Shown: one piece after another, positions 25,745 to 64,000 of the stretch
How the letters are laid out: each line of letters begins with the position of its first letter
How positions within the stretch are numbered: the stretch's first letter is position 1
Assembly: GCF_055900595.2 (NCBI RefSeq)
Contig: NZ_CM148325.1
DNA length: 64,000 bases
Direction: 5' to 3' (one strand)
The notes under the pieces: model-generated
The model's database searches: none
Told to the model about the DNA's origin: nothing
The model's input: the letters and a program-made list of their open reading frames with translations, nothing else
Program-made: the position numbers and the translations under genes

Positions 25745-25792
25745 TCGTCGGCCGGATAAGACGCGGCAAGCGTCGCATCCGGCAATGTGCTT
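25745..25792. repeat. REP (repetitive extragenic palindrome) element
   Basis: gccggataagacgcggcaagcgtcgcatccggca type sequence between hda and arsC. Confidence 0.7.
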
Positions 25793-27869: not shown

Positions 27870-28931
27870 ATGCTCGAAATGTTGATGCAATGGTATCGCC
27901 GCCGTTTTAGCGACCCGGAAGCGATTGCCTTGCTGGTTATTTTAGTTGCCGGATTTGGCATTATTTTTTTCTTTAGTGGCCTGCTTGCTCCGCTGTTGGT
28001 GGCTATTGTGCTGGCCTATTTGCTGGAATGGCCAACCGTGCGCCTGCAATCTATTGGCTGCTCCCGCCGCTGGGCGACGTCGATTGTATTGGTGGTTTTC
28101 GTCGGTATATTGCTATTGATGGCGTTCGTGGTACTGCCTATCGCCTGGCAGCAGGGCATCTACTTAATTCGCGATATGCCGGGGATGCTCAATAAGCTTT
28201 CTGACTTTGCCGCCACGTTGCCGCGCCGCTATCCGGCGTTAATGGATGCGGGCATTATTGATGCAATGGCCGAAAATATGCGCAGTCGGATGCTGACCAT
28301 GGGCGATTCGGTGGTGAAAATTTCCCTCGCCTCGCTGGTCGGTTTGCTGACCATTGCCGTCTATCTGGTGCTGGTACCATTGATGGTCTTCTTCCTGCTG
28401 AAAGACAAAGAGCAGATGCTGAACGCCGTTCGTCGGGTGCTGCCACGTAACCGTGGACTGGCAGGACAGGTATGGAAGGAGATGAATCAACAAATCACCA
28501 ACTATATCCGCGGCAAAGTGCTGGAGATGATCGTGGTGGGGATCGCCACCTGGCTGGGATTCTTACTCTTCGGGCTGAACTATTCGCTGCTGCTGGCGGT
28601 GCTGGTCGGCTTCTCGGTACTTATTCCGTACATTGGTGCATTTGTGGTGACCATTCCGGTGGTTGGCGTGGCGCTATTCCAGTTTGGTGCTGGCACGGAA
28701 TTCTGGAGCTGCTTCGCGGTGTATCTGATCATTCAGGCGCTGGACGGCAACCTGTTAGTACCTGTGTTGTTCTCCGAAGCGGTTAACCTGCATCCGCTGG
28801 TCATTATTTTATCAGTAGTGATCTTCGGTGGTTTGTGGGGATTCTGGGGCGTATTCTTCGCCATTCCATTGGCGACGCTGATCAAAGCCGTGATTCACGC
28901 CTGGCCCGATGGTCAAATCGCGCAAGACTAA
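27870..28931 (+). CDS. perM: AI-2E family transporter-like inner-membrane protein PerM (YfgO)
   Basis: 353 aa polytopic membrane protein. Confidence 0.85.
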   Translation: MLEMLMQWYRRRFSDPEAIALLVILVAGFGIIFFFSGLLAPLLVAIVLAYLLEWPTVRLQSIGCSRRWATSIVLVVFVGILLLMAFVVLPIAWQQGIYLIRDMPGMLNKLSDFAATLPRRYPALMDAGIIDAMAENMRSRMLTMGDSVVKISLASLVGLLTIAVYLVLVPLMVFFLLKDKEQMLNAVRRVLPRNRGLAGQVWKEMNQQITNYIRGKVLEMIVVGIATWLGFLLFGLNYSLLLAVLVGFSVLIPYIGAFVVTIPVVGVALFQFGAGTEFWSCFAVYLIIQALDGNLLVPVLFSEAVNLHPLVIILSVVIFGGLWGFWGVFFAIPLATLIKAVIHAWPDGQIAQD

Positions 28932-46071: not shown

Positions 46072-46130
46072 TGTCGGACGTAGGTCGGATAAGGCGTTCT
46101 TGCCGCATCCGACAAAACATCCGGCACACC
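46072..46130. repeat. REP element(s)
   Basis: gtcggacgtaggtcggataaggcgttcttgccgcatccgacaaaacatccggcac between bamC and purC. Confidence 0.65.
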
Positions 46131-50732: not shown

Positions 50733-50818
50733 CCTGGTAGGCCTGATAAGACGCGTGAGCGTCGCATCAGGCATCGTTCACCATTGCCGGATGCGGCATT
50801 AACGCCTTATCCGGCCAC
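50733..50818. repeat. REP/BIME cluster
   Basis: Inverted REP units (gcctgataagacgcgtgagcgtcgcatcaggc ... gccggatgcggcattaacgccttatccggcc). Confidence 0.7.
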
Positions 50819-50823
50819 TTAGC

Positions 50824-61008: not shown

Positions 61009-62052
61009 ATGCGCTATCGCATTTTTCTTCTCTTTTTTTTCGCTTTATTGCCGACGTCTTTGGTGTGGGCGGCACCAGCGCAACGGGCATTTTCCGACTG
61101 GCAGGTCACCTGTAATAATCAAAATTTCTGTGTGGCGCGCAATACGGGCAATCATAACGGACTGGTGATGACCCTGAGCCGCAGCGCCGGGGCGCGTACC
61201 GATGCCGTTTTACGTATTGAGCGCGGCGGGTTGAAGTCGCCGGATGCGTCAGAAGGGGAGATAGCGCCACGGCTGCTGTTAGATGGCGAGCCGTTGGCGT
61301 TAAGTGGTGACAAGTGGCGGATTTCACCATGGTTATTAGTAACCGATGATACGACAACCATCACCGCGTTTTTGCAGATGATTCAGGAAGGGAAAGCGAT
61401 CACCTTACGCGACGGCGATCAGACCATTTCACTGAGTGGCTTAAAAGCAGCGTTGTTGTTTATTGATGCCCAGCAAAAGCGCCTCGGCAGTGAAACTGCG
61501 TGGATCAAGAAAGGGGACGAACCGCCGCTCAGCGTACCGCCAGCGCCTGCGCTAAAAGAGGTCGCGGTAGTGAACCCGACGCCGACCCCACTTTCTCGTG
61601 AAGAACGTAACGATTTGCTGGATTACGGTAACTGGCGGATGAATGGTCTGCGCTGTTCGCTTGATCCGTTGCGTCGTGAAGTGAATGTGACTGCGCTGAC
61701 CGACGATAAAGCATTAATGATGATTAGCTGTGAAGCAGGCGCGTATAACACCATTGATCTTGCGTGGATTGTGTCGCGTAAAAAGCCACTGGCCTCGCGC
61801 CCGGTACGGTTGCGTTTACCGTTCAACAACGGTCAGGAGACCAATGAACTGGAACTGATGAACGCAACATTCGATGAAAAATCGCGTGAACTGGTGACCT
61901 TAGCGAAAGGGCGCGGATTAAGCGATTGTGGCATTCAGGCGCGCTGGCGCTTTGACGGTCAGCGTTTTCGCCTGGTGCGTTACGCTGCAGAACCCACCTG
62001 CGATAACTGGCATGGACCAGACGCCTGGCCCACGTTGTGGATCACCCGTTAA
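61009..62052 (+). CDS. ypfG: DUF1176-family periplasmic protein YpfG
   Basis: 347 aa with signal peptide. Confidence 0.85.
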   Translation: MRYRIFLLFFFALLPTSLVWAAPAQRAFSDWQVTCNNQNFCVARNTGNHNGLVMTLSRSAGARTDAVLRIERGGLKSPDASEGEIAPRLLLDGEPLALSGDKWRISPWLLVTDDTTTITAFLQMIQEGKAITLRDGDQTISLSGLKAALLFIDAQQKRLGSETAWIKKGDEPPLSVPPAPALKEVAVVNPTPTPLSREERNDLLDYGNWRMNGLRCSLDPLRREVNVTALTDDKALMMISCEAGAYNTIDLAWIVSRKKPLASRPVRLRLPFNNGQETNELELMNATFDEKSRELVTLAKGRGLSDCGIQARWRFDGQRFRLVRYAAEPTCDNWHGPDAWPTLWITR

Positions 62053-62059
62053 ATATAAT

Positions 62060-62180
62060 AGCGGGAACATGTCAGCCTGATAAGACGCGTCAGGCCGGAT
62101 AAGACGCGGTAGGCCGGATAAGACGCGTCAGCGTCGCATCCGGCAATCAGCATCCGGCAATCAGCATCCGGCGATCACCA
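62060..62180. repeat. REP/BIME cluster (tandem REP units)
   Basis: Repeated gccggataagacgcgtcag / gcatccggcaatcagcatccggc units between ypfG and tktB. Confidence 0.75.
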
Positions 62181-64000
62181 TCAGGCACCTTTCACTCCCA
62201 GTACCTTATGCGCTTTTGCCACAATATTCTCGGCGGTAAAGCCAAAGAACGGGAACAGCTTATCCGCAGGAGCAGATTCCCCATAACCCGTCATCCCGAC
62301 AATTGCCCCTTTCAGACCAACATATTTGTACCAGTAATCGGCGATGCCTGCTTCCACCGCCACGCGAGCCGCAACGTTAGAAGACAACACAGACTCCCGA
62401 TATTCCTCATCCTGGGCGTCGAAAATATCGGTCGAGGGCAGGGAAACTACGCGTACATTGCGACCTTCTCCCGCTAATTTCTCCGCTGCTTGCAAGGTGA
62501 TTTCCATCTCTGAACCAGTGGCAATCAAAATAATATCCGGCTTGCCGCCGCTGTCTTTCAACACATAACCACCGCGGGCAATCTCTTTTACCTGATCTGG
62601 CGTACGTTCCACCTGGGCCAGATTCTGTCTTGAGAGGATCAGCGCCGTCGGCCCGTTGTGACGCTCGACCGCCAGCTTCCAGCCCACCGCAGCTTCCACC
62701 TGATCACACGGTCGCCAGGTGCTGAAATTCGGCGTTAAGCGCAGACTTGCAAGTTGTTCAACCGCCTGGTGCGTCGGACCATCCTCCCCCAGACCAATTG
62801 AGTCGTGGGTATAAACCATAATTTGCCGCGCTTTCATCAGTGCCGCCATCCGCGCGGCGTTACGGGCGTATTCAACAAACATCAGGAACGTCGCGGTATA
62901 CGGCACAAAGCCGCCGTGGTGCGCGATGCCGTTGGCGATGGCGGTCATGCCAAATTCACGTACCCCGTAGTGAATATAATTCCCCGCTGGATCTTCCTTC
63001 AGCGACACAGAACCTTTCCAGATGGTGAGGTTGCTGGGAGCCAGATCCGCCGAACCGCCAAGCAGTTCAGGCAGCATGGGCCCGTAAGCGTTAAGCGTAT
63101 TTTGCGAAGCCTTACGAGTAGCGATTTTCGCCGGATTCGCCTGCAACTCATTGATATATTTCTGCGTCGTTTTTTCCCAGTCTTTTGGTAAACCACCGCT
63201 CATCCGGCGAGTAAACTCTTCTGCCAGTTGCGGATGAGCCTTTTTATACGCGGCAAACTTCTCATTCCAGCTCTGCTGTGCTTTTTCGCCTTTTTCGCGA
63301 GCGTCCCAGGCGTGATAAATCTCTTTGGGGATCTCAAATGGCGGATGATGCCAGCCCAGTTTTTGCCGTGCCAATGCCACTTCTTCTTCCCCCAGTGGTG
63401 CGCCATGCGCCTCTTCCTTACCTGCTTTATTCGGCGAACCAAAGCCAATCACCGTACGGCAGATAATCAACGACGGCTTATCTTTTACGCTTTGCGCTTC
63501 AAGAATCGCTTCCTTCACCGCCTGCGGATCGTGACCGTCGATTTCATGGATCACATGCCAGTGATAGGCTTCAAAACGTTTTGCCGTATCGTCGGTAAAC
63601 CAGCCTTCGGTTTCACCGTCGATGGAAATACCATTGTGATCGTAAAAACCAATCAGCTTGCCCAGCCCCAGCGTGCCCGCCAGCGAACAGACTTCGTGAG
63701 AAATACCTTCCATCAGGCAGCCGTCGCCCATAAACACATAGGTGAAGTGATCGATAATTTCATGATCCGGCTGGTTAAACTGCGCCGCTAGTGTACGTTC
63801 TGCTATCGCCAGTCCGACCGCGTTCGCCAAACCTTGTCCAAGTGGACCGGTGGTGGTTTCAACACCAGGCGTATAGCCAATCTCCGGGTGACCAGGGGTT
63901 TTCGAATGCAACTGACGGAAGTTCTTCAGCTCTTCCAGCGGCAGGTCGTAACCGGTCAGATGAAGCAAACTGTAGAGCAGCATCGACGCGTGACCGTTGG
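62181..64000 (-). CDS. tktB: Transketolase 2, C-terminal ~600 codons; 5' end outside window
   Basis: Translation contains transketolase TPP-binding and C-terminal domains (…[10 protein letters not shown]… no; …[14 protein letters not shown]…); the ORF continues past position 64000. Confidence 0.9.

Follow-up and report, generated by a model that had tools for sequence, protein, structure and literature searches.

A single REP palindrome flanked by separately repeated half-arms between ypfG and tktB of Escherichia coli

REPs are the most abundant and the longest-known repeats of Escherichia coli. They lie outside genes and are imperfect palindromes, 20-40 nt long, whose stem contains a bulge of two mismatched bases and whose 5' foot carries a GTAG tetranucleotide (PMC8266576, PMC3479197). 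A REP and an inverted REP with a linker between them form a BIME, which is often repeated as a module (PMC8266576, PMC3479197, PMC3333891), and the number of BIME copies at a locus differs between strains (PMC3333891). According to a 2026 preprint, any cluster of 1-12 palindromic units is called 'REP element' or 'BIME' by some authors without distinction (bioRxiv 10.64898/2026.03.23.713779). The prevailing view of REPs is that they are non-autonomous elements and that the RAYT/TnpA-REP transposase processes them (PMC3333891, PMC8266576). Long composite hairpins made of REP sequences are also formed by the REP doublets of Pseudomonas, the REPINs (PMC3116915, PMC3337134).

Here we describe the repeats that lie between ypfG and tktB in a 64,000-nt stretch of contig NZ_CM148325.1 (assembly GCF_055900595.2), referred to below as the window. 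The locus consists of one REP flanked by separately amplified half-arms and, for want of an inverted REP, falls outside the strict definition of a BIME. Elements of this kind have been described before, and the K-12 form is itself a known locus. Its weight for biology at large is small, given that the locus exists in K-12 and that variation of REPs and BIMEs among strains is already documented; the half-arm arrays and their polymorphism amount to a useful descriptive correction and not to a discovery.

One palindrome and two arrays of half-arms

ypfG and tktB are convergent and are separated by a gap of 128 nt, with the repeats extending over positions 62071-62187 (Table 1). The ypfG reading frame closes with TAA at 62050-62052 and its 3' UTR extends into the repeat. 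Tandem Repeats Finder resolves two adjoining arrays, one at 62071-62131 (period 19, 3.3 copies, score 94) and the other at 62136-62187 (period 14, 3.7 copies, score 83), and a separate repeat search of the window returned the same unit families at this site. With at most two mismatches allowed, the left-arm pattern GCCGGATAAGRCGC occurs 11 times in the window where 1.16 occurrences would be expected; the right-arm unit GCATCCGGCRATCA occurs 8 times, with an expectation of 1.49. Neither count was reached in any of 100 dinucleotide-preserving shuffles of the window, and because the REP-arm motifs are enriched in this way the repeats are not a product of chance. The gap contains no ORF of at least 40 aa in the ORF list of the window, on which ground a small-ORF reading was rejected.

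The core at 62109-62144 reads GTAG followed by GCCGGATAAGACGC-GTCA-GCGTCGCATCCGGC. Its parts are the GTAG at 62109-62112 and, at 62113-62144, an imperfect palindrome with a 7-bp foot (GCCGGAT/ATCCGGC), a two-nucleotide bulge (AA/GC), a 5-bp upper stem (GACGC/GCGTC) and a 4-nt loop (GTCA), giving GTAG-GCCGGAT-AA-GACGC-GTCA-GCGTC-GC-ATCCGGC in full. The left arm at 62113-62126 is the sole left arm to be followed by its own complement, at 62131-62144, and it is directly before this complete hairpin only that GTAG is found, L1 and L2 being preceded instead by GTCAG. The right half-units each comprise the REP 3' arm with 5 nt of flank, the first of them overlapping the right arm of the complete REP, and CGTC lies between the left and right arrays. 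From left to right, the arm cores thus read L L L R R R, with no second complete palindrome in the gap and no GTAG-REP on the minus strand. As six arm motifs yield one palindrome, annotators should not count arm motifs as palindromic units. At the far end the degenerate unit CCATCAGGCACC holds the tktB stop codon (TCA, which is TGA on the minus strand, 62181-62183) together with the last two tktB codons, and ATCAGGCA is located at this stop.

Table 1. Coordinates of genes, REPs and half-units in the window
Feature	Coordinates	Strand	Basis or remark
ypfG	61009..62052	+	DUF1176 protein; ORF and RefSeq annotation of matching genomes
tktB (transketolase 2)	62181..64000	-	3' end at 62181; runs past the window end; ORF and RefSeq annotation
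L1, left half-unit GCCTGATAAGACGCGTCAG	62075..62093	+	REP 5' arm and loop, without its own 3' arm
L2, left half-unit GCCGGATAAGACGCGGTAG	62094..62112	+	final four bases (62109-62112) are the GTAG of the complete REP
L3, left arm GCCGGATAAGACGCGTCAG	from 62113	+	left arm of the complete REP
Complete REP (palindromic unit)	62109..62144	+	inverted repeat; alignment to known REPs; naRNA4 hairpin match; predicted folds
R1-R3, right half-units	62136..62177	+	14-nt period; GCATCCGGCAATCA at 62136 and 62150, GCATCCGGCGATCA at 62164
Degenerate fourth right unit CCATCAGGCACC	62178..62189	+	present in every allele examined
Single REP, hda-yfgD (convergent)	25751..25783	+	K-12 REP182; 42 nt after hda
Degenerate single REP, bamC-purC	46080..46113	+	K-12 REP181; 113 nt after bamC
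Two-REP BIME, ypfH-ypfN (convergent)	50737..50819	+	K-12 REP180; 8 nt after ypfH

When the complete REP was aligned with the crystallised y REP GTAGGACGGATAAGGCGTTTACGCCGCATCCG (PMC3479197), with K-12 REP180 and REP182, whose sequences are given in the supplement to the 2026 REP preprint (bioRxiv 10.64898/2026.03.23.713779), and with the other REPs of the window, 19 columns were invariant. The Rfam model naRNA4 matches a single hairpin at 62112-62145 (E=1.4e-5) with 39 bits, the gathering score being 59.5. This model derives from the two-hairpin unit of REP325, and the score at ypfG-tktB falls below the gathering score because the second hairpin is absent here. Rfam has no REP family as such, and the REP325-derived model alone matched at this locus, below threshold; a GlsR20 match (E=1.3) was discarded as noise. 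The family is dispersed as well as extragenic: the window holds four REP loci, and about 250 kb of K-12 hold 13 clusters. Judged by its sequence, then, the core is a genuine REP of E. coli. With the palindromic units of types y, z1 and z2 it has in common the GTAG, the 7-bp foot, the two-base bulge, the GC-rich upper stem and an extragenic site in a 3' UTR, and it differs from them in that the locus adds extra half copies of the arms that are unpaired in cis. By the consensus types, the foot is y-like (GCCGGAT) and the upper stem z-like (GACGC).

In K-12, no intergenic REP cluster other than the ypfG-tktB element lies between REP178 (eutG/eutH) and REP180 (ypfN/ypfH), from which we infer by elimination that it is REP179. 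REP repeat_region features are absent from the RefSeq records, NC_000913.3 among them, and the part of the 2026 preprint supplement that was accessible has no entries for tktB, ypfG or REP179.

The first-pass annotation had reported a tandem REP/BIME cluster at 62060-62180, between ypfG and tktB. The repeats are indeed REP-like, as the Tandem Repeats Finder arrays and the motif enrichment over shuffles agree, the gene names are those of the RefSeq annotation of matching genomes, and the assignment to the standard extragenic repeats of E. coli is right as to family, the core having the GTAG, bulge and foot and aligning with known REPs over the invariant columns when the proposed alignment to the REP consensus is made. 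Its description of several palindromic units in tandem does not hold, since there is one complete palindrome only and the rest are half-arms sorted by orientation. The label 'REP/BIME' accordingly keeps its first half and, there being no inverted REP, loses its second.

Allelic variation among E. coli strains

The flanks of the ypfG-tktB repeats match in all but one of 5,426 complete E. coli genomes, and the window allele, with three left and three right units, is present at an identity of at least 99% in nine of the 5,426. Comparison of copy number among strains, the other check proposed in the first-pass annotation, proved to be the most informative one and reveals a highly polymorphic locus. 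In twelve alleles read base by base, the left units number from one to three and the right units from one to five. The window form L3R3 (gap 128 nt) is shared with the dog isolate Z0117EC0005; L2R2 (94-95 nt) is found in K-12 DH1 and in M19, L2R3 (109 nt) in strain F3, L2R4 (123 nt) in strain Z1323PEC0011 and L2R5 (137 nt) in strain C288. Alleles with a single left arm comprise L1R2 (76 nt), which is common in B2-type strains, and L1R1 (75 nt), from strain d1-58. A further class, with a gap of 102 nt in ST648 and SSGw2, has the REP and left arms swapped for a G-rich palindromic repeat that is unrelated to them and about 80 nt long, one 14-nt right unit being kept next to the tktB stop.

Allele classes were assigned from match lengths in two evenly spaced samples, together 98 chromosomes, of a genome collection that is itself biased; on this basis 56 chromosomes (57%) are K-12-like L2R2, 21 (21%) have one left arm, 15 (15%) carry the replaced form and 6 (6%) are expanded. 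An independent count of the REP-replaced class found it in 831 of the 5,426 complete genomes. The G-rich repeat of this class (...CCCCTCGCCCCTCTGGGGAGAGGGTTAGGGTGAGGGG..., at positions 505-600 of the ST648 sequence L008 and likewise in SSGw2) has a median of six megablast places per genome, and resembles the 'BoxC' repeat.

The 14-nt array is particular to this site. A 42-nt probe consisting of three 14-nt units matched beside tkt only, in 1,613 E. coli genomes, of which 132 had at least three perfect units, and the array is therefore a local product and not a dispersed repeat. Strains F3 and C288 have identical YpfG and TktB proteins and carry three and five right units respectively, so that the number of right units changes faster than the flanks. 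Being head-to-tail and variable in number between strains, the units make up a variable-number tandem repeat, and the length classes of the 98 sampled chromosomes are in agreement with this. They resemble the bacterial minisatellites that vary by slipped-strand mispairing in their short head-to-tail units, in the stepwise right counts of 2, 3, 4 and 5, and in the stepwise differences among strains with identical flanking proteins; they differ in that they come from a dispersed palindromic repeat and lie in a 3' UTR and not in a promoter or coding sequence. We know of no phenotype switch linked to the ypfG-tktB array. In practical terms, the array is a locus-specific, fast-changing length marker with possible use in fine strain typing, and it will produce spurious indel calls in short-read comparisons.

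A search of other species for tandem right arms with the pattern GCATCCGGC-N(3-9)-GCATCCGGC was set aside because the pattern is too loose: the matches listed are chance occurrences in genomes that are GC-rich and unrelated; Klebsiella contributes a single match to those listed, inside a coding sequence. Over 48 kb (window positions 15783-64000) the window is 96.6-97.3% identical to K-12 MG1655, so that its lineage is well separated from K-12; the nearest genome at the ypfG-tktB locus is the dog isolate Z0117EC0005, at 99.6%.

Origin, predicted folds and possible role of the arrays

We consider it likely that the locus represents a single REP whose arms were duplicated locally by slippage or template switching, and that its role, if it has one, is that of a generic 3'-UTR hairpin. 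The 5' arm, with its GTAG or loop-side flank, would have been duplicated into the 19-nt tandem array upstream of the hairpin, and the 3' arm with 5 nt of flank into the downstream 14-nt tandem array, which extends to the tktB stop. For both the rise of the arrays and their later changes, the most probable cause is a replication event at the hairpin, either slipped-strand mispairing or a template switch, which would account for the stepwise differences of copy number between close strains. The 19-nt duplicate in K-12 ends at the last base of the upper stem, immediately before the loop, which fits a switch at the hairpin. Flanking microhomology was not seen at this K-12 duplication, contrary to the prediction of simple slippage.

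It is very improbable that the locus is instead a canonical BIME, with several complete palindromic units in tandem and in alternating orientation. The sequence motifs are those of REPs, and the synonymous use of 'REP element' and 'BIME' by some authors would accommodate the name, but the arrangement is of another kind. The order of the 9-nt left and right arm cores was scored across the window and about 250 kb of K-12, where canonical clusters read LR, LRLR or, at REP325, LR twelve times over, with cores spaced 21-24 nt apart inside a REP and 22-34 nt apart between REPs. Same-arm neighbours at 14-19 nt occur only at tktB-ypfG, as LLLRRR in the window and LLRR in K-12, against the strict alternation of the sampled canonical clusters, and this is the sole cluster, one of 13 in the 250 kb of K-12, with same-arm cores no more than 25 nt apart; the other clusters flagged for same-arm neighbours are too loose for tight arrays, their gaps being 45-70 nt. 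A single left arm has its own right arm, the minus strand is without a GTAG-REP, and the two-hairpin naRNA4 model, which gives the true BIME at 50740-50816 a score of 89 bits, gives this locus 39. BIMEs, whether BIME-1, BIME-2 or atypical (for example REP325/naRNA4), do share with the locus their repeat family, tandem amplification at a single site and a copy number that varies between strains (PMC3333891), but they repeat a REP-linker-iREP module with alternating arm cores and a period of about 80-100 nt, whereas here half-arms of one orientation recur with periods of 19 and 14 nt and without an iREP. The composite hairpins of REPINs likewise contain two complete inverted REPs, thought to be the mobilised unit, and differ in this from half-arms nested around a single REP. 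Still further from the evidence are three readings to which we give almost no credence, namely an array of the CRISPR type, a miniature transposon and a low-complexity repeat formed by chance: short intergenic direct repeats with dyad symmetry could suggest any of the three, but the units abut without the unique spacers of similar length that mark a CRISPR, the neighbours are ypfG and tktB and not cas genes, terminal inverted repeats and target duplications are both lacking, and the motifs are REP arms enriched over shuffles. CRISPR and MITE or insertion-sequence readings were rejected on these grounds. The warning in the first-pass annotation against mistaking the repeats for CRISPR was thus well founded; its parallel warning against mobile elements stands as far as insertion sequences are concerned, with the caveat that REPs are themselves regarded as RAYT-processed non-autonomous elements (PMC3333891, PMC8266576).

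RAYT/TnpA-REP could in principle have built the arrays by cleaving at C|T beside the REP and rejoining the ends so as to add partial units. TnpA-REP does cut at C|T both before and after a GTAG-REP, and strand transfer can add units (PMC3333891, PMC8266576); moreover, the junction between left units in K-12 is GACGC|TGTAG, and the junction of the 14-nt units on the minus strand, GGATGC|TGATT, resembles the type-I site CC|TGAT of an iREP. However, the GTAG-REP is confined to the plus strand, where the right array is free of CT, the minus strand carries an iREP only, which the enzyme does not bind (PMC3479197), and the junctions of the left array in the window allele are not C|T. A CT dinucleotide within a 14-nt unit is in any case weak evidence, and we regard an enzymatic origin as unlikely compared with local duplication by slippage or template switching.

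The extra left arms can pair with extra right arms, and a nested hairpin is therefore predicted, with two tiers in K-12 and three in the window. The predicted fold has a free energy of -56 kcal/mol in ypfG-sense RNA (z = -4.5) and of -60.8 kcal/mol in tktB-sense RNA (z = -3.9), and in each case none of 200 shuffles was as stable. Its inner tier is the complete REP and its second tier pairs L2 with R2; the third, predicted for the window allele only, pairs GCCUGAU of L1 (62075-62081) with AUCAGGC (62180-62186) and so covers the tktB stop. K-12 is predicted to have the same nesting. The surplus right units of L2R4 and L2R5 are without a partner in the predicted folds, and L1R2 has two non-compensating changes in the foot that weaken its predicted hairpin to -24 kcal/mol. 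A terminator scan of 61800-62500 found no intrinsic terminator on either strand, and no U-tract follows the hairpin; an intrinsic (Rho-independent) terminator was accordingly rejected as a reading of the locus.

A REP between convergent genes may act as a 3'-UTR hairpin that impedes 3'-5' exonucleases, and the hairpin may also partially terminate or attenuate read-through in both directions. The role of the element, if any, would most likely be that of a 3'-end hairpin serving both the ypfG and the tktB transcript. In the 2026 preprint, about 60% of E. coli REPs are placed between convergent genes, such pairs showing higher expression, REP325 is described as a stabiliser and partial Rho-dependent terminator, and no consistent effect of REPs on mRNA half-life is reported genome-wide (Harris et al. 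preprint, bioRxiv 10.64898/2026.03.23.713779). The unmatched arm numbers of L2R4 and L2R5 argue against selection for the nested structure, and these, together with the decayed L1R2 allele of B2-type strains and the roughly 15% of chromosomes without the REP, suggest weak or no functional constraint.

A part in tktB translation termination would be the most interesting reading that remains. The array might tune TktB synthesis if a stop codon in or near a stable stem stalls ribosomes and leads to tmRNA rescue, with copy number setting the strength of the effect. Expression is reportedly lowered, through ribosome stalling, when a REP lies no more than 15 nt from a stop codon; in the window, the UGA of tktB (62181-62183) is inside the outermost predicted stem, and in K-12 the second-tier predicted stem begins about 9 nt past the stop. 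However, the complete REP hairpin lies about 23 nt (K-12) to 37 nt (window) past the stop, beyond the reported range, a ribosome should be able to unwind the short and interrupted helices of the outer tiers, and alleles that lack the REP are common, so that we consider such tuning improbable. We hold out equally little hope for the wider proposal that half-arm amplification is a distinct and overlooked form of REP evolution in which tier number serves as a heritable dial on two convergent 3' ends, termination at the tktB stop included. If it were true, a single REP would grow into a nested hairpin of adjustable height. Whatever its standing, the natural allelic series (REP absent, or with one, two or three tiers) could be used to probe the relation between hairpin size and convergent 3' ends.

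Other REPs and repeats in the window

The first-pass annotation had also listed smaller REP units after hda, bamC and ypfH. All three are present (Table 1), but 'smaller' is a misnomer for the unit after ypfH, which has two full palindromes against one at tktB. No other canonical BIME occurs in the window; this one is composed of a REP at 50741-50772 (GTAG, foot GCCTGAT), a 13-nt linker and an inverted y-type REP at 50786-50815. It scores 89 bits with naRNA4 (RF02564; gathering score 59.5), the sole match in the window to pass an Rfam gathering score, which demonstrates that units like naRNA4 also exist outside REP325.

At the REP between hda and yfgD, the tetranucleotide (25747-25750) is GTCG in the window and GTAG in K-12 REP182, a change by which, on the RAYT literature, recognition by TnpA-REP should be lost. 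The REP between bamC and purC is accompanied by an extra 3'-arm fragment, CATCCGGCA, at 46118-46126, 4 nt past the foot, which represents a second and smaller arm duplication within the window. Tandem Repeats Finder additionally detected a 27-nt unit present twice (28083-28133, score 65) and a 12-nt near-duplicate (28003-28026), both in a coding region by position.
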